A stretch of 64,000 nt of DNA from an uncultured Candidatus Saccharibacteria bacterium (GCA_964361095.1 CAYHZA010000006.1:1828-65827), one strand, 5' to 3'. Positions 1,746 through 22,472 are shown, counted from the stretch's first letter. Numbers and translations: made by a program. The notes: generated by a model not told the origin, from the sequence alone.

Positions 1746-2588
1746 ATGATTATCGGCCACGAGGATTTCCTTCTTAGTTTCGCAAAACTCGCCGATCGCG
1801 GGGAAATAAGTCATGGGTATATTTTCTGGGGACCCGAGCGCGTCGGGAAAAAAACCGTGGCGCTTGAGCTCGCGCGGTATCTCGAAGAAAAAAAGTTTTC
1901 CGAAAGCGATATCCTAAAAAATAAGGGGAGCATTTTAGGGGATTGCCGTGTGGTCTCGCCCGATGAGACAAAAAAAATAGGGATCGACGCCGCGCGCGAC
2001 ATAAAGTATTTTCTTTGGCAGAAACCGAATCGGAGTGAGTATCGTACCGTTGTGATCGACGACGCCCACCTTTTGACCGCGGAAGCCCAGGACGCTCTCT
2101 TGAAGATCGCGGAGAATCCTCCTGCCTCTACATTGCTCATCGTTATTGTGCGTAATCCCGAACTTCTGACGCCGACGTTAAATTCTCGGCTCCAAAAAAT
2201 TTATTTCGCGCCGGTCGGTGAAGAGAAAATACGGGAATGGCTTATCAAGGAATTTCATCTCGCCGCCGCAAAATCTACGGAAATCGCGAAGTGCTCTTTG
2301 AATACCCCGGGGCGGGCTTACGCCTTGCTCTATGACGAGAAATTTCAAAAGATAAGAGACGCGGCTCGCGCTTTTTTAAAAGTTTCGAGAAGTGAGCGAA
2401 AAAATTTCATTAAAGAGCTTCTTCTCGACGATGCGTTCAATTTTGAGGAATTTTTGGACGCTCTTATCGCGGAACGAGTCGAGGCAAAAAATTTCGGCGA
2501 TTGGCACGACCTTCTCGCATTACGAAAAAACGCGGCGTATGTTAATCTGAATCCGAGGCTTCATCTTGAAGCGTTATTTTCGAAATAA
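1746..2588 (+). CDS. holB: DNA polymerase III delta-prime subunit-like AAA+ clamp-loader protein
   Basis: N-terminal Walker-A-like GPERVGKKT and the delta-prime architecture; 280 aa. Confidence 0.7.
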   Translation: MIIGHEDFLLSFAKLADRGEISHGYIFWGPERVGKKTVALELARYLEEKKFSESDILKNKGSILGDCRVVSPDETKKIGIDAARDIKYFLWQKPNRSEYRTVVIDDAHLLTAEAQDALLKIAENPPASTLLIVIVRNPELLTPTLNSRLQKIYFAPVGEEKIREWLIKEFHLAAAKSTEIAKCSLNTPGRAYALLYDEKFQKIRDAARAFLKVSRSERKNFIKELLLDDAFNFEEFLDALIAERVEAKNFGDWHDLLALRKNAAYVNLNPRLHLEALFSK

Positions 2589-2590
2589 TC

Positions 2591-3142
2591 ATGGAAACAT
2601 ATATTAAAGAGCTGGCCGATTATTTTCGGGCGGCGGTGGAAGAATTTAAAACCGAGATCGCGGGCGTTCGGAGCGGCAGACCGACGACCCAGCTCGTTGA
2701 GAATATCCAAGTGGAGTATGCGGAAGGAATGTACCCGATAAAGCAGCTGGGTTCCTTGGGCATCAAACCACCTCGGGAAATCACGATTACGGTATGGGAC
2801 CAAAACGCGGTTACCGCGGTCCTCAAAGCTATCCAAGACGCAAAGGCGGGGATGAGCGTTCAGAATGAAGGAAATGTTGTCCGGTGTTTTTTACCGCCTT
2901 TGTCGCAGGAGCGCCGCGACGAATTTACGAAGTTGGTTAAAAAGATGTCGGAAGGAACGAGAATTCGGATACGCGGAAATCGCGACGATGTGATAAAAAA
3001 AATAAAGGCCGCGGAGGGAGCGAAGGAGTTAAACGAGGACCAGGTTTTTAAGGGAAAAGAACGGATCCAAAAGCTTGTTAATGAGACCAATAAGCAGATA
3101 GAGACAATGGTGGAGGGGAAGGTGAGGGAGTTAGAAGAGTAG
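2591..3142 (+). CDS. frr: Ribosome recycling factor
   Basis: Full-length match to the RRF family (..VRSGRPTTQLVENIQVEYAEG..). Confidence 0.92.
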   Translation: METYIKELADYFRAAVEEFKTEIAGVRSGRPTTQLVENIQVEYAEGMYPIKQLGSLGIKPPREITITVWDQNAVTAVLKAIQDAKAGMSVQNEGNVVRCFLPPLSQERRDEFTKLVKKMSEGTRIRIRGNRDDVIKKIKAAEGAKELNEDQVFKGKERIQKLVNETNKQIETMVEGKVRELEE

Positions 3143-3176
3143 AGGACTTCGGGATGCGCTTTGTACGAAATGAAAA

Positions 3177-3199
3177 GCCGCCTGGGTTGCCCGGGCGGC
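3177..3199. terminator. GC-rich hairpin between convergent frr and a small minus-strand ORF
   Basis: GCCGCCTGGGTTGCCCGGGCGGC forms a 9-10 bp stem. There is no strong U-tract. Confidence 0.4.
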
Positions 3200-3224
3200 T
3201 GGTCTAGTGTTGGGCCTTTTCGCA

Positions 3225-3407
3225 TTACTTCTCCTCGATTGCGGCTACGATTCTCCATGCAGCAGCCCAGATGCCGAAAATAAGGGCATATGCGAAGAGC
3301 GTGATCCCAAAACCGAGAAAATAGGGCCTGCCAACCACTGTGCCACCGAATGCGGCAAAGAAGAAGGCGCAACCCAAAAATATAGAAGCCTTCGCCCTGG
3401 AATCCAT
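3225..3407 (-). CDS. Small hydrophobic protein (two predicted TM helices)
   Basis: 60-aa ORF with two hydrophobic stretches and no recognisable homology. Confidence 0.3.
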   Translation of the reverse strand: MDSRAKASIFLGCAFFFAAFGGTVVGRPYFLGFGITLFAYALIFGIWAAAWRIVAAIEEK

Positions 3408-3520
3408 CTTGGAGCCTCCTCTATGTCAAACAGTTGAAATAACTGATACTGATTGAATTATATATCAAATATGATACATTGTCAAGTTGTGTATTTTCTT
3501 ATATTTGTTACATTGATTGG

Positions 3521-4804
3521 ATGCTCACCGCGCTTATCGTCATTATCGGTCTTTCGCTTCTGATCCTTGGCCACGAGGCGGGACATTTTTTCGCCGCGAA
3601 ATTTTTCAAACTCCGCGTGGACGAATTCGGCTTCGGTTTTCCGCCGCGGATGTTCGCGAAAAAAATAGGTGAAACCGAATATAGCGTGAACTGGCTCCCG
3701 TTCGGCGGATTCGTAAAGATCGCCGGAGAAAACGACCAGTTTGACAAAGAAACGGGAAAAACGCTTACCGATGAGGAAAAAGCCCGCGTTTTTTACTCAC
3801 AGCCCGCCTTACAGCGAAGCATTATTATTTTGGCCGGTGTTTTTGTGAATTTTATTTTCGCATGGTTTTTGTTTTCTCTCGTGCTTATGGCGGGAACGCC
3901 TTCGTTTCTCGCGATAACGTCCGTCTTGCCCGGTTCTCCTGCCGCATCGGCGGGAATTATGAATAACGATATTTTAAAAAACTTTCGATCGGTTGCCGAA
4001 CTCGAGAAAGCTTTTGAAGCAAAGAACACGCCGGTAGAACTTGAAATACTTCGGGAGACAAAGAGTATAAAAATTCCGTTCGTTCCCGCCGCGACCACGC
4101 GCGAGGTGCGTTCCGCGATCGTAATTGAAGATATCCAATCGAATTCACCGGCGGAGGAGGCGAAACTGAAAAAGGGTGATGTGGTACAGGGCTTCTTGGA
4201 AACAAGTGATTTTATTTCGTTTGTGAACGCGCATCGCGGAGAGGTGATTACGCTCCAAGTGCTTCGCAAAAATGAGATTATAACGATTACACCCCATCTG
4301 CGAAGCGATATTCGCGAAGGAGGTCTCGGTATACTTCTCTCCGAAGGAGAACTCTTCAGCGCAGAGGGACTTTTGGTCAAAAAAGGCGGCATTGAACCGC
4401 AGGGATTTTTTTCGGCGATTGGGGACGGATTAGGCCAAACGCTTGAAGTGGCAAAACTTACCCTCTCGGGTTTCTATGAGCTCATTAAGGGATTGTTTAC
4501 TCGGGGAAAACTTATCGAAGGAATTGTCGGACCGATCGGCATCTTTTCATTCGCGGCAGGAGCCGGCCAGATTGGCTTTTCGAACCTGATCTACTTGCTC
4601 GCGCTTATTTCCGCGAATTTGGCGATGATAAACCTTATTCCGTTCCCGGCGCTCGACGGGGGACGCTTCTTCCTCATCCTCGTCGAGAAGATAAAAGGAT
4701 CGCCGATTTCGGTAAAAACCGAGTCGGTTATCAATACGTTCGGATTTGTGTTCCTTATTTTCTTAATGATCATCGTTGCGGTCCGCGACATCATTAATTT
4801 GTAA
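3521..4804 (+). CDS. rseP: RseP-like site-2 zinc metalloprotease (M50 family) with PDZ domain
   Basis: HEAGH zinc motif in the first TM helix, an internal PDZ-like region, and the C-terminal LDGG motif (PFPALDGGRFF). Start assigned to ATG 3521. Confidence 0.8.
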   Translation: MLTALIVIIGLSLLILGHEAGHFFAAKFFKLRVDEFGFGFPPRMFAKKIGETEYSVNWLPFGGFVKIAGENDQFDKETGKTLTDEEKARVFYSQPALQRSIIILAGVFVNFIFAWFLFSLVLMAGTPSFLAITSVLPGSPAASAGIMNNDILKNFRSVAELEKAFEAKNTPVELEILRETKSIKIPFVPAATTREVRSAIVIEDIQSNSPAEEAKLKKGDVVQGFLETSDFISFVNAHRGEVITLQVLRKNEIITITPHLRSDIREGGLGILLSEGELFSAEGLLVKKGGIEPQGFFSAIGDGLGQTLEVAKLTLSGFYELIKGLFTRGKLIEGIVGPIGIFSFAAGAGQIGFSNLIYLLALISANLAMINLIPFPALDGGRFFLILVEKIKGSPISVKTESVINTFGFVFLIFLMIIVAVRDIINL

Positions 4805-4985
4805 GATTTTATTGCGTTTTTCCTCTAACCCCCGTTACCACTGCCCTATAGCCGTGGTTTTAATCTATACTCTTCGGGTTTTGATAGAATGTATCCACAG
4901 GTTCAAATCTAAGGATTTCTGGTAACGGGGTAAAACGGCATAAGCATTTTAGTTCTCTCGACGGTTGTTCTATACTTAAGGAAGA

Positions 4986-6488
4986 ATGACCCTCTTAATC
5001 AAGAGCGTTCAAGTTTTAGGTTCGCCGTTAAAGCTCCCCGAAAGAGTTGATGTTTTTATAAACGGCGACCGGATATCCGCGATAGGAAATTTTCCCGACA
5101 AAAAAGCCGACTTTATATTTGACGGCCAGGGAGCGTATCTTGCGCCAGGTTTTATTGACGTTAACACCGATTCGGACCATTACCTCTCGCTTTTTGACGA
5201 TCCCGCCCAAGGTGATTTTTTGTCCCAAGGCGTAACAACGATTGTCGGGGGGAATTGCGGATCTTCTCTCGCCCCGCTTATTTATGGGAGTCTTGAGTCG
5301 GTTCAGAAGTGGGGGAATATCAACAAAGTAAACGTTGATTGGCACACGATTGCCGAGTTTTTAAAACTTATCGAAAAGCGGCCGCTGGGCGTTAATTTCC
5401 TCACACTCGTTGGACACTCAACTATCCGCCGCGCCTTGATCGGCGGAACACTGCGCGATCTTACGAAAAATGAACTCGGTGTATTTTCCGAAACCTTAAA
5501 ACGCGGTCTCGGGGAAGGCGCGAGTGGATTCTCGACGGGTCTTGGGTATGTGCACAGTCATCAAACACCTTACGCGGAGATTAAATTGCTCGTGAATATA
5601 GTTCGTGAAAGCGGGGGAGTTTACAGTACTCATCTGCGGAACAACGGCCCCGAACTCAAAGCGTCGATTGACGAAACGATACGCGTTTCTGAAGAGACGG
5701 GGGCAAAAGTTCTCATAAGTCACTTTCTTCCCTTGAAGGGCGTGGAAAAAGAATACGAAGAAGCCCTTGAAACCATTGAGCGTCTTCCGGGCGATCGGGA
5801 TTTCCATTTTGATATATATCCCTTTGATACAAGCGTTATACCGCTCTATAAATTTCTTCCGGACTGGGTTCAAAACGGAGGCATTGAAGTAATGGTGAGT
5901 AATGTTCTTGATAAATGGCTTGAGCCGCGCATCGTAAAAGATCTTCCCAAAATAGCTCCTTACGATTTTATAATTGGACAAGCTACGGATAATACGGCGT
6001 TCGTCGGAAAATCGCTCCGCGATCTTATGGAATTATATTCTCTCCAAGATCCCCGCGAAGCGTTGATGAAGCTTATGATAACGACAAAACTGAGAGCGTC
6101 TATCCATTTTAAAAATATCAACACAAGCCTAGTGAATAAAGGGCTGATACATAGACGTTCGTTTATTGCTTCGAATTCAGCAAGTACGAAAGAGGGAAAG
6201 GGCGTGAAAAAACTCGAACGAACAACCTCGACGTTCACTAAATTTCTTTCCCTTGTTCAGGATGAAAAAATAATGTCGCTCGAGGATGCGATTCGAAAGA
6301 TAACGCTTTTGCCGGCGCGCAAATTTAACGTGGAGCGTCGCGGAGAAATAAAAGAAGGAAATTTCGCGGACCTCACGTGTTTTCGGGGGAGTGAAATTAA
6401 GTTGACGGTTGTGAACGGTCAAGTCGCGTATATGGACGGCATGATCCACGACAAGTCGGCCGGCCGGCCGCTCCGAAGCCATGGCTAG
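4986..6488 (+). CDS. Amidohydrolase-superfamily protein, D-aminoacylase (N-acyl-D-amino-acid deacylase)-like
   Basis: N-terminal ..APGFIDVNTDSDH.. corresponds to the amidohydrolase GFIDVHTH region, but the two His are replaced by N and D. Overall length and motifs fit the D-aminoacylase family. Confidence 0.65.
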   Translation: MTLLIKSVQVLGSPLKLPERVDVFINGDRISAIGNFPDKKADFIFDGQGAYLAPGFIDVNTDSDHYLSLFDDPAQGDFLSQGVTTIVGGNCGSSLAPLIYGSLESVQKWGNINKVNVDWHTIAEFLKLIEKRPLGVNFLTLVGHSTIRRALIGGTLRDLTKNELGVFSETLKRGLGEGASGFSTGLGYVHSHQTPYAEIKLLVNIVRESGGVYSTHLRNNGPELKASIDETIRVSEETGAKVLISHFLPLKGVEKEYEEALETIERLPGDRDFHFDIYPFDTSVIPLYKFLPDWVQNGGIEVMVSNVLDKWLEPRIVKDLPKIAPYDFIIGQATDNTAFVGKSLRDLMELYSLQDPREALMKLMITTKLRASIHFKNINTSLVNKGLIHRRSFIASNSASTKEGKGVKKLERTTSTFTKFLSLVQDEKIMSLEDAIRKITLLPARKFNVERRGEIKEGNFADLTCFRGSEIKLTVVNGQVAYMDGMIHDKSAGRPLRSHG

Positions 6489-15765: not shown

Positions 15766-16147
15766 GTAGATGACATGCTCAAAACAAGAAGAAGGTGCCG
15801 GCGAAGCTGACCTAATGTCTTTATGGTATTGGGGAATTCCTTCCGAAAGCGGCACTTTCGGCAGAAGAGCTCCGAATATGTCTCGGAAATATCTTGGTGG
15901 ACAAAACTCCCGCCGCAAACATCATGGAATCCGACAACTCCATTGGGGATTTTTGTCCGATCCCCGCCCACGATATTCGTCACAATGAGCTTGATCCCAT
16001 GTTCGCTAAGCACCATAGCTTTTACCATCTCCCCTCCTCCCGTAAGGCAAGTGATTATAACGGATGATTTGCTGGTCTTATTATTACAATAAATTTAGTT
16101 TTTCGCAAGAAAAGTCTGATTTGGTATACTTTGTAGTAAGCGGTTTT

Positions 16148-16414
16148 ATGAAAATTACTCTACAAGAGCTTTCGGCTCCGGGATGCGTGCACTGCGCCGA
16201 GTTTGAGCGCTTTTGGCATTCGATCGAAAAGGATTTTCCGAACGTGGAATATAAAAAAATCGACATCACAACTCCCGAAGGAACGGATCTTGTTCGTAAA
16301 CATATGATTTTCGCCTCGCCGGGGATCGTTATAAACGACGAAGTTTTTTCCACAGGCGGAATTAACAAGGATAAATTTGTGGCGAAGTTGAAAGAATTAT
16401 CAGAAAAAAATTAA
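16148..16414 (+). CDS. Thioredoxin/glutaredoxin-like protein (CxxC)
   Basis: PGCVHC active-site motif; start assigned to ATG 16148 (MKITLQEL). Confidence 0.6.
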   Translation: MKITLQELSAPGCVHCAEFERFWHSIEKDFPNVEYKKIDITTPEGTDLVRKHMIFASPGIVINDEVFSTGGINKDKFVAKLKELSEKN

Positions 16415-16490
16415 AAATCAAATATCAAAATGCAAAATAACAAGTCAAAACCTAAAAATCTTTTTAGTGTCACTTTGATTTTTGATTTTT
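16413..16490. promoter_or_regulatory. Inverted pair of a 17-nt AT-rich motif TTTGAT(A/T)TTTGATTTTT (copy 1 on the minus strand at 16413-16430, copy 2 on the plus strand at 16474-16490, 43-bp spacer) upstream of doxX
   Basis: Read directly from the sequence. A third copy lies at 22651-22667. Confidence 0.5.
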
Positions 16491-16503
16491 GCACTTTACA
16501 CTT

Positions 16504-16905
16504 ATGAAATTTTTGCAAAAAATTTCGGCAGAATGGGTTCTCCGTATTTTTTTTGCGTGGATGTATTTGTATTCGGGAGTTGATATTATCCAAAATCCCA
16601 AAAGCTGGACGTGGGCAGTGCCAATCTGGTTCAACAATTTCATAACGCAATTTATGCCGATTGAAACGTACATGAGAATCCAAGGAGTCGGCGAAATTAT
16701 TTTCGCGCTCGCATTCCTCGCGTGGTTTTTAAAACCCGTTTTTTTGAAATATATCGCTCTCCTTGCCTCCTTCGAGATGGCGGGCATTTTATTCTTGGGG
16801 AAAACCGGCATTGACTCCATTACCTTTCGAGATATTGGCCTCTTGGGTGGATTAATCGCGCTTGCTATAATATTTAGAGATAGATCCAAGGCAACTATTC
16901 AATGA
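16504..16905 (+). CDS. DoxX-family membrane protein
   Basis: Four predicted TM helices and a DoxX-like N-terminus (RIFFAWMYLYSG). Confidence 0.55.
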   Translation: MKFLQKISAEWVLRIFFAWMYLYSGVDIIQNPKSWTWAVPIWFNNFITQFMPIETYMRIQGVGEIIFALAFLAWFLKPVFLKYIALLASFEMAGILFLGKTGIDSITFRDIGLLGGLIALAIIFRDRSKATIQ

Positions 16906-19163
16906 ACGAAGAATCCGGCTCGCGAAAATTTTTGATAGGCGCTCTTTTCGCCATTCTCGCTATTATAGTTTTCGGGCTTGTTTGGTTTTTCTTAGGCAGT
17001 GGCTCGGCTTCGCCGGTGGGTTTCGGATGGTACTTGTTCAGTTTCGCGGCGGGGCTTTCGATGATCGTACTCCCCTGCACGCTCCCCTTAGCATTTGTGA
17101 TCGTCCCGCTTTCCATGGGAAAAGGACCGATCAGGGGTTTTATGATCGCGATCGCGTTTGGACTTGGCGTAGCGGTTACGTTAAGCATGTATGGAATAAT
17201 CGCGGCGATAATCGGTAAAGTCGCGATTGGTTCTTTAGGGGCGCCGCTTGAGGTTGTAAAAAATTGGCTCTATTTTATCGCGGGAGCATTCGCGTACCTC
17301 TTTGCATTAGGCGAACTTGGCCTCGTGAAGTTTCGGATGCCCTCCTATAGTGGGGCTTTTCCGGGATTTATCCAAAAACAACAAGATATTTTTAAGGCGC
17401 TTCTTCTTGGACTTTTTTTGGGAAATGTGGGTGTTGGGTGCCCGCATCCGGCAACGCCAGTGATACTTACAAGAATTGCCGTTTCCGGAGATGTTTTTTA
17501 CGGCTGGCTTCTCTTTTTTGTCCATGCGACCGGAAGAATTTTGCCGCTTATCTTTTTGGCAATTTTAGGAATCTTGGGCGTGAACGCGCTAAGTAGTCTC
17601 GTAAAACATAAGGAAAAAATTGCGCGCGCAACCGGTTGGGGAATGGTTTTTGTTGCGGCATTTATTCTCGTGCTCGGGCTCTTCTCGCATGATTGGTGGG
17701 TCACATCCGGCCAGCATACTTATCTCGAGGAATTAACGGGCGAAGAACACTATCTGAATATCATCGCGAAGAACCTTGGCGCGGCAAGCGTTCACCAACA
17801 CGGTTTGCCACCGGCAGATAACACCGGTCTTTTTGGCCTGCCGCTTCCGCTCGGAACCTGGACGCTTTTATTCCTCTGGGTACTCCCCTTTTTCTGGTAT
17901 TACTATAAGAAGAAAAAAAATATTGCCGCTATGACGGAGTCACCGGAAAAACAAAGCGAGCAAAAAACACTCCCCTATCTTTTTTGGAACTTCGTCACGA
18001 TTTCCTTGATTCTCGTGTTGGTTTTTGGATACATCCTTCCGAACCGTTTTCTCCAAAATGCCACAATGGAAACTGATCATCATGATCCTGCGCCAAGGAG
18101 TTCTCCTGGTATAATGATGGAAAACCACGCGAGCGGAACGATGGATATGATGTCTATTGACCGCACAGGGCATACCACACACTACCAAGAAGAATTGAGT
18201 CCGGACGAATATAGGGAAAAATATGGAGAAGAACAAGAGGGTGTGGCGGTGAATTTCAACGCGACGCCGGAGTCGCCGACGGTCGGCGAGGAGGTGAAGT
18301 TCGATTTCTATGTGAATGAAAAGCCAAAAGGCACCCCGATTCCGGAATCAGACCTCGGAGTCCAGCATACGAAAAAAATGCACGTGATTGGCGTGCGCCG
18401 TGATCTCAATGAGTTTCTCCATATTCATCCGGTTGCGCCGCAAGAGACTTCCGCTTACTTAAAAACTGTTTACGTATTCGACAAGCCCGGAGATTATAAG
18501 ATATGGTCGGAGATAAATTACCAAGATGTAAACCTTGTTTATGGACATCCGATCCTTACGGTAAGTGGCGAGGGACCCACATCGGAGCTTGCAAAAGAAA
18601 TAACTACGAATCAAATTGTTGGAGACAAATACCAAGTTGCGATCGATTACCACGATGGGCTCTCCGTGGGAGAGAATAATCATATTGATTTCTCGATCAA
18701 AACCCTTACGGGGAATGGAGTTGTATTAGGTGATTTTCTTGGAGCGAAGATGCATCTATCGGTTATTTCCGAAGACCTTGCGCAATTTATTCATACACAT
18801 CCCAATGATCATGGAGGGATGCAAATGGACGACGGCCATGGCCATAGTTCTCTTGTGCCTGTCGCGCGTGCCAACGGCGGTGAGGAAAGTGTGCCGCAAG
18901 ATCATGTCGGTTTTACGGTACCGTTTGCGAAAGAGGGATTTTATAAGATGTTTGCCCAATTCCGTCCGGCGGATGCCACGCTTTCCGTAGACGACGCTTT
19001 GGTCGCGGAATTTTGGATAAACGTTTCAAAAGCGCAGGAGAAAAAACCGGAAGGGATTTCTCCGTGGTGGCGAAATTTGCTCGTTTCTATCGCCGCGATC
19101 TTAATTTTGAGCTGGGTGGTAAAAAAATTTATCACGGTTCCGCTTGACTTGAAAAAACAGTAA
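16902..19163 (+). CDS. Fusion protein: CcdA/DsbD-like thiol-disulfide transmembrane transporter, Met/His-rich linker, and two periplasmic His-motif (HxHP) beta-sandwich-like metal-binding domains
   Basis: LPCTLPL and GCPHP Cys motifs in TM helices. Then METDHHDP...MMENH...MDMMSI. Two repeats contain LHIHPVAP and IHTHPNDHGGMQMDDGHGH. Confidence 0.55.
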   Translation: MNEESGSRKFLIGALFAILAIIVFGLVWFFLGSGSASPVGFGWYLFSFAAGLSMIVLPCTLPLAFVIVPLSMGKGPIRGFMIAIAFGLGVAVTLSMYGIIAAIIGKVAIGSLGAPLEVVKNWLYFIAGAFAYLFALGELGLVKFRMPSYSGAFPGFIQKQQDIFKALLLGLFLGNVGVGCPHPATPVILTRIAVSGDVFYGWLLFFVHATGRILPLIFLAILGILGVNALSSLVKHKEKIARATGWGMVFVAAFILVLGLFSHDWWVTSGQHTYLEELTGEEHYLNIIAKNLGAASVHQHGLPPADNTGLFGLPLPLGTWTLLFLWVLPFFWYYYKKKKNIAAMTESPEKQSEQKTLPYLFWNFVTISLILVLVFGYILPNRFLQNATMETDHHDPAPRSSPGIMMENHASGTMDMMSIDRTGHTTHYQEELSPDEYREKYGEEQEGVAVNFNATPESPTVGEEVKFDFYVNEKPKGTPIPESDLGVQHTKKMHVIGVRRDLNEFLHIHPVAPQETSAYLKTVYVFDKPGDYKIWSEINYQDVNLVYGHPILTVSGEGPTSELAKEITTNQIVGDKYQVAIDYHDGLSVGENNHIDFSIKTLTGNGVVLGDFLGAKMHLSVISEDLAQFIHTHPNDHGGMQMDDGHGHSSLVPVARANGGEESVPQDHVGFTVPFAKEGFYKMFAQFRPADATLSVDDALVAEFWINVSKAQEKKPEGISPWWRNLLVSIAAILILSWVVKKFITVPLDLKKQ

Positions 19164-19179
19164 GCCAACTCCATAGAAA

Positions 19180-19677
19180 ATGAATAAATATTTTATTTTG
19201 GGATTGGTCGGTTTTCTTATTATTGCGGGGGGTGTTTCGTATAAGGTATTTCTCCGGCCGGCGAGTTCCGAGCCCGTCACGACGGGCGAGGTTAAAGAAT
19301 TTACCGTTACGGCAGAAAAAGACGAGTGGCGTTTTACACCCGAAAACATAGAGGTGAATCGTGGCGATAAAATTATCATGACGGTGGTAAATGAAGACGA
19401 CTATGACCACGGTATCGCGATTGATGCTCTCGGGGTTTCTCAACGAATGCCGGCAAATCAAACCATTAAAATAGAATTCGTGACAACCCAAGCAGGAGAT
19501 TTTCCTTTCTACTGTTCTGTTCCTTGCGGCGAGGGCGAAGTTCATGGTGTGAAACGGACGCACTTTGATATGATAGGCACGATTAAGGTGCGCGATTTAG
19601 TGAGGGAAGATAAGAATCCCCTGCCGACGGATACAAACGGGATTCATATTAAAGGCGAGTTAGATATCAATTTATAA
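19180..19677 (+). CDS. Membrane-anchored cupredoxin-like copper protein
   Basis: N-terminal TM helix and a C-terminal FYCSVPCGEGEVHG...HFDM ligand pattern (Cys/His/Met, CuA/type-1-like). Confidence 0.55.
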   Translation: MNKYFILGLVGFLIIAGGVSYKVFLRPASSEPVTTGEVKEFTVTAEKDEWRFTPENIEVNRGDKIIMTVVNEDDYDHGIAIDALGVSQRMPANQTIKIEFVTTQAGDFPFYCSVPCGEGEVHGVKRTHFDMIGTIKVRDLVREDKNPLPTDTNGIHIKGELDINL

Positions 19678-19689
19678 GATCCAATTTTT

Positions 19690-22068
19690 ATGGCCAAGTA
19701 TGTTCTTAAAGTAAAGGGAATGCATTGCGCTTCCTGCTCGGTGCTGATCGACAAACTGATCGGCAAGCAGGAAGGCATCACTTCGATCAAAACGAGCTAC
19801 GGCGCGGAGAAAACGTCTATTGAATTTGATGAGTCAAAGATCTCGCTTGAAAAAATAGATGAGTTTATTCATAAACTTGGCTATGACTTGATCCGTCCCG
19901 ACGAGGCATCCGCCACTCCCGAGGAAGAAGAGGCGAAAGACAGACGCATTATCAAAGAGGCACAGCGGCGCGTTATCGCCGCATTTGCGCTCGCTCTCCC
20001 GATTATCATCTATTACATGGCGCTGCATATGTTCAATTTGAAACATGTGCACGCGATCTATGGCATCGATCTGAACTACATTTACTGGGTCCTCTCGACA
20101 CCCATCCAGTTTATTATCGGCTGGTCTTTCTATAAGAATTCATTCACTTCGATTCGCGTGGGATCCGCGAATATGGATGTACTGGTGGCTCTCGGAACTT
20201 CCGCGGCGTATCTTTACTCAACGATAGGGTTTCTTTTCTTCAACATCGACCATCCGTTCTGGGAGTCCTCCGCCGCCCTTCTTGCATTTATTCTCTTAGG
20301 CCGCTATTTTGAGGCGGTCGCGAAAGGCAGGGCATCGAGTGCGATCAAAGAACTTCTGAAACTTGAAGCGAAAGACGCGCATGTCTTGCGTGATGGACAG
20401 GAGATATTGGTTCCCATCGACCAACTCAAAGAAGGCGACATCGTTGTGGTTCGTCCGGGCGAAAAGATTCCTGTTGATGGCATAATCATTGAGGGAAAAA
20501 GCCATATAGACGAAAAGGTGGTAACCGGTGAATCATATCCGGTTACGAAGACCGTGGGCGACGAAGTAATTGGCGCGACCATTAATCAGGAAGGACTTCT
20601 AAAATTTAGGGTTACAAAAGTCGGGAAAAATACCCTCCTCTCGCAAATTGTCCAAATGGTTGAAGAAGCGCAAGCATCGAAGGCGCATATCCAAGACCTG
20701 GTGGATAAAATTTCCGAATATTTTGTTCCCGCGGTAGTCGTCATTTCTATTTTTGTATTTGTCGGTTGGTATTTCGTGGCGGGACTTCCCTTTCGCGCGG
20801 GATTGATCCGCACGATAGCCGTGCTCGTGATTTCCTGTCCGTGCGCGATGGGACTTGCGACTCCCACCGCTTTGATGGTTGGCATCGGCCGCGCGACAAA
20901 ATTCGGCATTATTTTGAAGGGTGGCGAGGCGCTTGAGAAGGCCTACCAAATTGATGCCATCGCCTTTGACAAAACCGGCACGCTTACGATCGGAAAACCG
21001 ACGGTAACGGAGTTTATACTTCTCGATCCAAGCGTTGATCATAAAAAAGCGTTAGCCGTTATTGGGGCACTTGAAATGGGATCCGAACATCCACTCGCTC
21101 GGGCAATCGCCGAAAAAGCAAAGCAAGAGCTTGGTGAAAAAAATCTTCCCAAAGTTTCTAATTTCGAAGCCGTCGCGGGATTGGGTGTTAAAGGAACAGT
21201 AGAAAAAAAGGCCGCTTTCGTTGGAAATCAGGCCTTTATAGAGGGTTTGGGAATGAAAACCGATAAGTACGCGACGGAAGTCCAAAAGCTTCAGGGTGAG
21301 GCAAAAACAGTCGTTTTCGCGGCATATGGGAAGAAGATTATAGCCATTTTGGCACTTGCCGACACCCTAAAGCCTTATGCTCAAGAAGCCATTCGAGAGT
21401 TAAAAAAGATGGGGAAAGAGGTCATCATGATAACCGGTGATAACCCAAAAACCGCCGAAGCGATTTCAAAACAGATAGGCATTGACAGGTTTTACGCGCA
21501 AGTTCTGCCGCAGGACAAAGCACAGCTCATTAAAAGCATACAAGAAGGAAAAGATTCAACGACGAATGGCGTGAAATCGGGAAGTAAAAAAGTGGCTATG
21601 GTGGGCGACGGCATCAATGACTCCCCTGCTCTCGCGCAGTCGGATTTGGGTATTGCGATTGGTTCCGGCACGGATGTTGCGATCGCGACGGGAGAAATTA
21701 TTTTAGTCAAGGACGATCTCCGCGATGTCGTAACCGCGATACAGCTGTCGGGAAAAACAATCAAAAAAGTCTGGGGTAATCTCTTCTGGGCGTTCGTCTA
21801 TAATGTAGTCGCGATTCCCGTCGCCGGAGGTATCCACCTTCTTGTGACCCAAAGCTCGCTTGGGGTTGCCGCGCCCTGGGTATTAAATACGGTAAGCGCT
21901 ATGGGCGGGCAGGCAGGACAAGTATTCCTTAATCTCTCACAGGCAACGCTTCGTCCGGAAATCGCGGGGTTCGCGATGGCGTTGAGTTCCATTTCAGTCG
22001 TTTTGAACTCCCTGCTTTTGCGGCGTTATACTCCGCCAATTGAGAGATCAATAAGTGTGGTAAAATAA
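19690..22068 (+). CDS. copA: Copper-translocating P1B-type ATPase
   Basis: N-terminal HMA domain (GMHCASCSV), CPC motif ([11 protein letters not shown]), DKTGT, and the [10 protein letters not shown] hinge. Confidence 0.92.
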
Positions 22069-22072
22069 ATGT

Positions 22073-22213
22073 ATGGAAAAAATAACATTAAATATCACGG
22101 GTATGCACTTTGGGTCGCTCGTCGCTATACAGCAACTCGCTCCTTCAAAACCCTCGGTTTTGAATTCGTCCTTCGACTTCGCTCAGGACTCATTCCTACA
22201 CGGGGAAAACTAA
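22073..22213 (+). pseudogene. Degenerate partial duplicate of the copZ 5' end (46-aa ORF with the metal-binding CxxC replaced by FGSL)
   Basis: MEKITLNITGMHFGSLVA.. against CopZ MEKITLNISGMHCGSCAI... The DNA is near-identical over the first ~35 nt. Confidence 0.4.
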
Positions 22214-22265: not shown

Positions 22266-22472
22266 ATGGAGAAAATCACATTAAATATATCAGGAATGCA
22301 TTGCGGCTCCTGCGCGATTGGAATTCAGATGCTCGTCTCCGGAATGGATGGGGTGAAATCCGTGAATGTTGATTATGAAGGTAAAAAAGGAGTCTTTGAG
22401 TTCGACTCCTCGAAGGTTACCAAAGAACAAATTATCAAAGGTATTGAGGAGTTAGGGTACAAGGCAACTTAG
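22266..22472 (+). CDS. copZ: Copper chaperone CopZ (HMA domain)
   Basis: GMHCGSCA metal-binding motif; 68 aa. Confidence 0.85.
   Translation: MEKITLNISGMHCGSCAIGIQMLVSGMDGVKSVNVDYEGKKGVFEFDSSKVTKEQIIKGIEELGYKAT

Follow-up and report, generated by a model that had tools for sequence, protein, structure and literature searches.

A DsbD_TM-type membrane protein with tandem His-triad domains forms part of a conserved copper operon in Patescibacteria

The subject of this study is a gene for an unusual fusion protein, located in a 64,000-nt stretch of DNA (the window) from an uncultured Candidatus Saccharibacteria bacterium (GCA_964361095.1, CAYHZA010000006.1:1828-65827). The protein joins a membrane domain of the DsbD_TM (CcdA/DsbD) type to a tandem of immunoglobulin-like (Ig-like) domains, each bearing a triad of His residues. 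It is best explained as the membrane core of a Patescibacteria-specific copper module, in which copper ligands take over from the thioredoxin-fold partner usually found outside the membrane. These ligands would be provided by the outer half of the membrane domain, which is lined with His and Met, by a tether rich in Met and His, and by two His-triad domains. We tentatively propose, at somewhat less than even confidence, that the protein would act as a thioredoxin-driven reductase whose target is copper or a copper site, not a thioredoxin-like protein, and that it would hand copper to a CuA-type cupredoxin encoded in the same operon.

Background

Patescibacteria, or the candidate phyla radiation (CPR), are tiny groundwater bacteria with tiny genomes, thought to have neither respiratory chains nor cytochromes. 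Most CPR lineages have been inferred to lack electron-transport chains (PMC5581439). Assembly of CuA centers requires a copper chaperone together with a reductant for the two Cys ligands (TlpA or Sco), and CcdA serves as the membrane source of this reductant (PMC9145763). In B. subtilis, CtaK (YtkA) aids CuA assembly, as does the YtkA domain of YcnJ (PMC13344008, PMC9145763); CtaK has His and Met positions that are conserved and is inactivated by the H118Y substitution (PMC13344008, PMC12362106, PMC9145763). A CcdA-type reductant working with a copper chaperone for CuA is already known in this way, but as separate proteins.

No description of the fusion protein or of its operon was found in the searchable literature on cupredoxins, nirK, multicopper oxidases (MCOs), CcdA and DsbD of Patescibacteria, Parcubacteria and CPR. 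A preliminary description of the window, made from the sequence alone, had also known of no characterized protein with this combination of domains; the family proves to be widespread in public data under the names "CcdA" or "hypothetical". Judged against the literature searched, the fusion itself, the His-lined membrane domain, the conserved operon and the exchange of modules with MCO and NirK are new.

Results

The membrane domain belongs to the DsbD_TM family and carries an invariant set of Cys, His and Met residues

A search of 5.8 billion proteins produced 573 matches, and the best 120 of these, nearly all full-length (mostly 94-100% coverage and 45-65% identity), were used for the conservation counts. 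In the window protein, the Pfam model DsbD_TM (PF02683) matches residues 46-252 with 32.8 bits (gathering score, 27.1); it was matched by all 66 aligned homologues at E <= 0.1, some of them slightly under the gathering score, and the NCBIfam models of DsbD and TsoB were matched in part, over their membrane regions. Cys occurs at just two positions of the protein, C59 in VLPCTLPL and C180 in GCPHPATP; both are invariant in the 120 homologues, and a single one of 82 further sequences departs from this. Exactly two Cys residues occur in 105 of the 120 homologues, and the periplasmic parts are essentially Cys-free. The motif around C59 is LPCTLP, and that around C180, GCPHP, is without the usual Pro ahead of the Cys. 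Because the profile match exceeds its threshold and the Cys pair is present, the fusion protein is assigned to the DsbD_TM family. The preliminary description had taken the N-terminal part to be of CcdA type from the same two motifs, and this holds: the family assigned by hidden Markov models is DsbD_TM and not an unrelated transporter family, and the Cys pair is conserved.

One feature that defines this family functionally is lacking, as Pfam detected no thioredoxin-fold acceptor domain in the fusion protein. Nothing other than DsbD_TM was matched at E <= 1, and neither CopC nor CopD domains were found in it. Similarly, no gene for a periplasmic thioredoxin-fold protein of the DsbD gamma, ResA, CcsX or ScsC type was seen in three Pfam-annotated loci, the other loci having been scanned solely for the operon's own genes; an acceptor of this kind might be encoded elsewhere in the genome.

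An AlphaFold2 model built with a 66-sequence alignment as input (mean predicted local distance difference test score, pLDDT, 83.4) has nine helices in the membrane part, namely an extra N-terminal helix, the six-helix core and two more. Core helices 1 and 4 are interrupted exactly at C59 and C180, with breaks at residues 57-60 and 178-183. The core is followed in the model by an outside loop (residues 269-316), two helices, a disordered linker (residues ~392-424), two beta-sandwiches and a last transmembrane helix. Because of the KKKK sequence at residues 336-339 and the Lys-rich C-terminus (positive-inside rule), and because of the topology of DsbD, we infer that the loop, the linker and both beta-sandwiches are extracellular. 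The known arrangement of DsbD agrees with this placement.

Together with the Cys pair, a set of potential metal ligands is fixed in the membrane part: C59, C180, M54, H182, H208, M248, H263, H272, H298 and H300 are constant or differ in at most one of the 120 homologues, and the six His residues together with M54 and M248 are conserved in all three architecture classes. These His and Met residues sit at or outside the Cys pair and are predicted to line the outer half of the membrane domain. A more distant fusion of DsbD_TM to an Ig tandem (P0202, 742 residues) has GCPNP as the second Cys motif, with Asn in place of H182, and retains H208, H263, H272, H298 and H300; it may represent a second subfamily.

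A Met/His-rich linker leads to two His-triad repeats

The Met/His-rich stretch noticed in the preliminary description (residues ~386-444) is real and is a property of the family. In the 120 homologues it contains 11.3% Met and 11.5% His, compared with 2.5% and 3.7% in the whole proteins; its sequence is poorly conserved and its composition is conserved, at least four Met and His residues being present in 117 of the 120.

The two following repeats are homologous to one another (BLASTP E = 1e-5), and both are predicted to be beta-sandwiches with pLDDT >90; the C-terminal region modeled separately reached a pLDDT of 86.9 and a predicted template modeling score of 0.83. Each repeat contains the HxHP motif by which it had first been recognized. 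The His residues of these motifs (H507/H509 and H631/H633) and the His upstream of them in each repeat (H494 and H618) are invariant or differ in one of the 120 homologues, and M493 and M617 are 71-78% conserved. In an alignment with eighteen distant relatives of other architectures both His triads are retained, and H489 and H648 are also conserved there. The additional element HGGMQMDDGHGH, attributed earlier to the second repeat, is present, but it falls inside a variable insertion modeled with low confidence, and H648 is its only conserved residue (90%).

The fusion gene belongs to a conserved six-gene operon

To count operon members, the window genes were compared by phmmer with the open reading frames (ORFs) of 83 loci, and the denominators below are the loci with enough sequence to judge. 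The gene order is thioredoxin, DoxX/MauE-like membrane protein, fusion protein, cupredoxin, CopA and CopZ. The membrane cupredoxin and CopA had been named as neighbors in the preliminary description, correctly so, and the cupredoxin can now be specified as CuA-type; the thioredoxin, the DoxX/MauE-like protein and CopZ are further members of the cluster. The cupredoxin gene was found in 69 of 73 loci, the thioredoxin gene in 61 of 69 and the DoxX/MauE-like gene in 50 of 69; for CopA the count is 42 of 47 loci, for CopZ 38 of 47, and every locus contains the fusion gene by construction.

Thioredoxin orthologues (n = 67) are ~87 residues long, have an invariant CxxC and no signal peptide, and the operon thioredoxin is presumed to be a cytoplasmic electron donor. 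The small membrane protein has no conserved Cys, and the stop codon of its gene and the start codon of the fusion gene overlap in the sequence ATGA. Sub-threshold matches to DoxX and/or MauE, covering most of each profile, were obtained for 7 of 11 of its orthologues, and the protein is possibly a subunit of the system. Thioredoxin reductase was considered as a member of the operon and rejected, since it adjoins the operon in 3 distinct loci only: a gene for a thioredoxin-reductase-like flavoprotein lies just upstream in a few genomes (L002, identical to L060, positions 2216-6135; L036; L044) and is not a general feature. In L002, genes for a DsbA-like protein and a glutaredoxin are also found upstream.

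The residues H77, C112, C116 and H128 do not vary among 69 cupredoxin orthologues, of which 47 have Met and 22 have Gln at position 131. All five ligand positions align with the CuA ligands of subunit II of the Thermus ba3 oxidase, with an 8-residue loop insertion, and the protein also matches the CuA domain of NosZ. From the invariant ligands and the alignment to the Thermus subunit, this protein is classified as a stand-alone, membrane-anchored cupredoxin of the CuA type. Its ligand spacing is H77-x34-C112-x3-C116-x11-H128-x2-M131, compared with H-x34-C-x3-C-x3-H-x2-M in the CuA pattern; since the spacing from Cys to His is 11 and not 3, a binuclear site is likely, not proven. The ligands C112 and C116 are the only conserved extracytoplasmic Cys residues of the operon.

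Split genes and exchanged modules define a slot for extracytoplasmic copper proteins

In 12 loci the fusion protein is encoded by two genes, one for an N-module of ~350 residues and one for a C-module of ~400 residues. The split point lies between transmembrane helices 7 and 8 (TM7 and TM8), and TM8 therefore becomes an N-terminal anchor of the periplasmic module. The possibility that the split genes are assembly frameshifts at the poly-A tract encoding KKKK was rejected, because proper stop codons with overlapping or adjacent ATG codons are present in the 12 loci. The existence of such genuine split versions, with stop/ATG overlaps, suggests that the two halves work together. In a Wildermuthbacteria locus (L062:7081-7472), a lone N-module gene is separated from the cupredoxin gene by a gap of only ~390 bp, and apparently no periplasmic copper module is encoded.

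In sister lineages, the membrane domain, with all its signature residues intact, is fused to two- or three-domain MCOs, which in NCBIfam are best matched by CueO and copper-resistance MCOs, or to NirK (324 bits for the NirK equivalog against a cut-off of 296); the N-module also occurs with a separate MCO gene downstream. A second database search revealed fusions of the DsbD_TM domain, at least 15 with NirK and at least 20 with MCO. Since the same membrane domain is fused to an Ig tandem, to MCO or to NirK, the slot that follows it is a swappable extracytoplasmic copper-protein module, around which the thioredoxin, cupredoxin, CopA and CopZ are constant. In two further proteins, P0347 (1151 residues) and P0354 (1139 residues), NirK-type cupredoxin domains occur together with those of HMA, E1-E2_ATPase and Hydrolase type, so that these proteins are fusions of NirK with a CopA-type ATPase. 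NirK is fused either to the DsbD_TM domain or to CopA, which places the membrane domain alongside a copper supplier. In addition, stand-alone NirK genes were found a few kb away from operons of the Ig-tandem (Ig2) type in two loci, L064:3116-4345 (+) and L066:2151-3278 (-), the latter from Ryanbacteria.

The tandem module is related to copper-trafficking domains of other bacteria

The repeats of the window protein match no Pfam model, and the YtkA model (PF13115) gave zero matches at E <= 5 with either the window protein or the isolated repeats. Since direct assignment failed, the link to YtkA was drawn through homologues. YtkA is matched by 10 of the 66 aligned homologues; the best match, that of P0070, reaches 31.3 bits (threshold, 25.9), extends over no more than positions 49-82 of the 85-position profile and is located in repeat 2. 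An exhaustive phmmer search with residues 441-723 against 1.84 billion cluster representatives retrieved 1439 matches at E <= 1e-3, 216 at E <= 1e-10 and 51 at E <= 1e-30, with proteins of other architectures appearing at E values of about 1e-13 to 1e-17. One of the matches is a 958-residue CopC-CopD protein with the YcnJ architecture (P0256, E = 7.5e-13), aligned over residues 711-952, a region that holds a YtkA match of 29.2 bits, above the gathering score. Stand-alone proteins among the phmmer matches carry near-full-length sub-threshold YtkA matches. A partial protein from Thermomicrobiales (P0271, 485 residues) consists of the C-terminus of a CopA-type P-type ATPase, one more helix and then the tandem His-triad module, and is a direct fusion link between a copper exporter and the Ig module. 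Three lipoproteins of 403-418 residues (P0224, P0235 and P0252) contain the tandem module followed by a Cupredoxin_1 domain, which ends in a conserved C...F-x-C-G-M-x-M motif that is not CuA-like.

Taken with the partial Pfam matches, these sequence links indicate that the window repeats are remote relatives of YtkA/CtaK and neither CopC nor cupredoxin domains. From the fusions with CopC-CopD, a CopA-type ATPase and cupredoxins, found also in other phyla, we infer that the Ig module is a part of copper-trafficking systems. The module turns up on importers (CopD), exporters (CopA), cupredoxins and a DsbD-type domain, and a context is thereby provided for the whole family of tandem His-triad, YtkA-like modules retrieved at E <= 1e-3.

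Degenerate cupredoxin or MCO domains were considered as an origin of the repeats and rejected, as no cupredoxin was among the 50 best matches listed for each Foldseek search against PDB. For the whole model and the C-terminal model alike, the Foldseek matches were no more than generic, of multi-Ig or macroglobulin type, with Zcp (DUF4198) ranked first at a TM-score of ~0.25-0.30 and 12-14% identity. Sequence searches of PDB with the C-terminal region, the whole-family profile and the membrane core detected no relative, CcdA included.

The family is widespread in Patescibacteria

The fusion is a widespread family and not a rarity. When GTDB was scanned with one genome per species, at least 220 genomes had a relative of the fusion protein, so that at least 220 species of small-genome Patescibacteria keep one, with a six-gene copper operon built around the protein. 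Of the best 80 genomes examined, 79 are titled Patescibacteria, and the exception is a 1.7 kb contig binned as Gammaproteobacteria. The named hosts among the best 120 protein matches are likewise Patescibacteria, mostly Parcubacteria lineages. The public label "cytochrome c biogenesis protein CcdA" is misleading and is corrected by the present analysis.

Discussion

Proposed function and alternative explanations

According to the reading that we prefer, the adjacent cytoplasmic thioredoxin would reduce the C59-C180 pair. The pair would then open outward, and its electrons would go to copper or to copper-site cysteines instead of a protein CxxC, whereby copper would be held as Cu(I) and/or the two CuA cysteines of the cupredoxin would be held reduced. 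Copper exported by CopZ/CopA would be relayed through the linker and the His-triad domains to the cupredoxin and, in sister lineages, would take the same route to the MCO or NirK that replaces the Ig domains in the fusion. On genomic grounds, electrons would accordingly run outward, the histidines would bind copper, the cupredoxin would be the client, and the role would be metalation rather than a sustained supply of electrons. The CuA-type cupredoxin gene next to the fusion gene in 69 of 73 loci would be in keeping with a part of the YtkA-like module in CuA assembly. A coupling of reducing equivalents to copper handling had been proposed in the preliminary description. The operon counts, the split genes and the swaps with MCO and NirK strengthen this proposal; its weakest part is the suggested reduction of Cu(II) to Cu(I) for export.

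Several points weigh against a reductase acting on copper. To our knowledge, DsbD-family proteins reduce thioredoxin-fold partners only, and we know of no precedent for a member that acts directly on copper or a cupredoxin loop. The His ladder follows from the predicted topology and not from distances measured in the model, and the YtkA assignment is remote, as the window protein has no Pfam YtkA match and few of its homologues have one. Operons of the MCO and NirK types retain the cupredoxin without the Ig module, which argues that the Ig domains are not an obligatory CuA chaperone. Sites of three His residues favor Cu(II) and fit poorly with a Cu(I) relay. Finally, the fused MCOs look like cuprous oxidases of the CueO/PcoA type with Met-rich inserts, and an adjacent copper reductase would appear futile next to such an enzyme unless copper serves as an electron shuttle.

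If the protein is indeed a reductase of copper or copper sites, DsbD/CcdA chemistry would extend from protein disulfides to metal centers, and these bacteria would possess a one-polypeptide answer to CuA assembly, a task that elsewhere needs TlpA, Sco and PCuAC or CtaK. The operon may explain how Patescibacteria load or power copper proteins at their surface.

The first alternative, which we consider unlikely, is a sustained electron supply. The system would then be a conduit free of cytochromes and quinones that feeds a terminal copper enzyme, with electrons passing from NAD(P)H through thioredoxin reductase, thioredoxin, C59/C180, copper in the cavity and the CuA cupredoxin to NirK, MCO or, in the window, the His-triad domains, either for redox balancing or for removing O2 (MCO) and nitrite (NirK) at the cell surface. 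In the variant of this explanation centered on the membrane domain, to which we also attach a low probability, the Cys pair of the DsbD fold would lie in a His/Met-lined cavity and reduce copper, and the CuA cupredoxin and interchangeable terminal modules would follow. CuA is known purely for electron transfer, and the CuA-type cupredoxin is the most constant partner of the fusion protein; the swappable slot houses electron-requiring enzymes, identified by the NirK equivalog and as two- and three-domain MCOs, stand-alone NirK genes lie close to Ig2-type operons in L064 and L066, and a thioredoxin gene is within the operon. DsbD proteins have been proposed as feeders of non-classical acceptors (PMC8238504), and in the published account of Parcubacterial NirK the electrons reach the cupredoxin "by an unknown means" (PMC5581439); the present operon makes testable how the Parcubacterial NirK and cupredoxins get their copper and electrons. 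However, feeding two-electron thiol chemistry into one-electron copper centers is unprecedented for the DsbD fold, and a terminal enzyme is absent from most Ig2-type operons. NirK is also fused to CopA, which offers no electron source, so that the fusions may reflect copper supply or co-assembly, and the occurrence of the Ig tandem on CopD and CopA transporters, again with no electron source, points to a copper-handling module and not to a terminal reductase. If the chain existed, the protein would be the first DsbD-family member with a metal center as acceptor, and the feeding of electrons to CPR NirK would be explained.

It is quite improbable that the fusion protein is a copper transporter, in which the DsbD_TM-like domain would carry Cu(I) on the two Cys residues and H182 by alternating access, comparable to Hg transport by MerT/MerC, with the Ig domains as an outside copper dock like that of CopC-CopD-YtkA importers and the thioredoxin merely keeping the transport Cys residues reduced. 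The DsbD fold does work by alternating access, and the LysE superfamily includes metal-ion transporters; however, we know of no DsbD_TM member that is a metal transporter. The invariant His and Met residues line a route from the Cys pair outward, and elsewhere the Ig2 module is fused to membrane copper transporters, both CopC-CopD (P0256) and the CopA-type ATPase (P0271). An importer combined with CopZ and CopA would also fit with work in B. subtilis that backs copper import followed by re-export for the loading of oxidases (PMC13344008). Against transport, most loci have kept both the LPCxLP redox motif and a dedicated thioredoxin gene, a sign of stoichiometric redox cycling; on the cytoplasmic side, M146 in an R-M-P-x-Y loop was the only conserved metal ligand noted, and export is already covered by CopA.

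Very little probability remains for an ordinary supplier of reductant, i.e. a CcdA for cytochrome c maturation or an Scs-like system for the repair of copper-damaged disulfides with incidental metal domains, for which speak the public name, the role of DsbD-family proteins (DsbD, i.e. CutA2, and ScsB) in copper tolerance, and the DsbA-like, glutaredoxin and thioredoxin-reductase-like genes near the L002 operon. This explanation leaves the six extra invariant His residues, the missing acceptor and the obligatory copper-protein partner unexplained, and is opposed by the rarity of adjacent thioredoxin reductase genes (3 loci), by the absence of ResA/CcsX/ScsC-type thioredoxin, ResB/ResC and cytochrome c genes from the three Pfam-annotated loci (the others having been scanned for operon genes only) and by the lack of electron-transport chains inferred for most CPR lineages (PMC5581439).

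Comparison with known systems

Like CcdA and the DsbD beta-domain, the fusion protein possesses a six-helix core with two transmembrane Cys residues at helix breaks and has a cytoplasmic thioredoxin alongside, and as in E. coli DsbD, two extra helices after the core lead into a periplasmic C-terminal domain. Unlike these proteins, it has no DsbD gamma, ResA or CcsX acceptor, its GCPHP motif lacks the usual preceding Pro, and it bears six invariant His residues plus Met on the outer half, an extra N-terminal helix and a copper-type Ig tandem; moreover, its Patescibacteria hosts are not known as makers of cytochrome c. In Salmonella ScsB-ScsC-CueP and in DsbD/CutA2, a DsbD-family reductase is similarly coupled to periplasmic copper handling. 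The Scs system, however, works via the thioredoxin-fold protein ScsC and a Cys-containing chaperone and involves no fusion to copper-binding domains.

The Ig module resembles YtkA, CtaK and the corresponding part of YcnJ in being a membrane-tethered extracytoplasmic beta-sandwich with conserved His and Met residues and with gene ties to CuA and membrane copper proteins; for YtkA, partial Pfam matches and phmmer links to the CopC-CopD-YtkA protein speak for homology. YcnJ follows the same design of a membrane domain and then a YtkA module, and this C-terminal module is the only part that the YcnJ-type CopC-CopD importer shares with the fusion protein. In contrast to these systems, the module is a tandem and not a single domain, its partner is DsbD_TM and not CopD, and in the window protein it lies below Pfam detection. 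CtaK works with Sco, whereas the window operon contains no Sco.

The CuA assembly pathways with TlpA, Sco and PCuAC (Bradyrhizobium, Thermus) likewise keep two Cys residues reduced and deliver copper, their reductant coming ultimately from a CcdA/DsbD-type protein. They employ separate soluble or anchored proteins that are thioredoxin- or cupredoxin-like, whereas here both tasks would be merged and no periplasmic CxxC is present. Zcp (DUF4198) is a periplasmic metal-binding beta-sandwich whose His triad consists of an HxH pair and one distant His and which binds Zn, Cu, Co and Ni (PMC12663993), and is similar in this combination; the structural match is, however, generic, with no sequence relationship and a different genomic context.

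Features of the window

The features of the fusion gene and its operon are listed in Table 1.

Table 1. Coordinates of the fusion protein, its parts and the neighboring operon genes, counted from the first nucleotide of the window
Feature	Position	Strand	Description
Fusion protein	16902..19163	+	753 residues; DsbD_TM-type membrane domain and tandem His-triad Ig-like module
DsbD_TM/CcdA six-helix core	17022..17705	+	Residues 41-268; redox pair C59/C180; M54, H182, H208, M248, H263 also invariant
Extracytoplasmic loop	17706..17849	+	Residues 269-316; invariant H272, E276, E281, H298, H300
TM7 and TM8 helices	17850..18080	+	Residues 317-393
Met/His-rich disordered linker	18057..18233	+	Residues 386-444; pLDDT <50; composition conserved in 120 homologues
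Ig-like repeat 1	18234..18581	+	Residues 445-560; His triad H494/H507/H509; H489, H549 mostly conserved
Ig-like repeat 2	18624..19046	+	Residues 575-715; His triad H618/H631/H633; H648 within variable His/Met insertion
C-terminal transmembrane anchor	19062..19133	+	Residues 721-744
Thioredoxin	16148..16414	+	88 residues from internal Met of ORF 16064..16414; Thioredoxin_3 E = 4.6e-6; MJ0307-type thioredoxin
DoxX/MauE-like small membrane protein	16489..16905	+	~130 residues; sub-threshold DoxX/MauE matches
CuA-type cupredoxin, membrane-anchored	19180..19677	+	Cupredoxin_1 E = 1e-10; ligands H77, C112, C116, H128, M131
CopA, Cu(I)-exporting P1B-type ATPase	19690..22068	+	One N-terminal HMA; TIGR01511, TIGR01525; Pfam HMA, E1-E2_ATPase, Hydrolase
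CopZ copper chaperone	22266..22472	+	68 residues, motif MHCGSC; HMA domain in orthologues

Scans of the window for promoters and terminators performed no better than on shuffled sequence; they included one extended -10 candidate immediately upstream of the thioredoxin gene. The copA stop codon is directly followed, at 22073-22213, by a near-identical copy of ~45 nt of the 5' end of copZ. The ORF of this copy begins with MEKITLNITGMH, compared with MEKITLNISGMHCGSC in the real copZ, and since the sequence then diverges and the CxxC is lost, the copy is regarded as a remnant of a partial duplication. A similar CopZ-like remnant of 56 residues precedes copZ in the locus L005.

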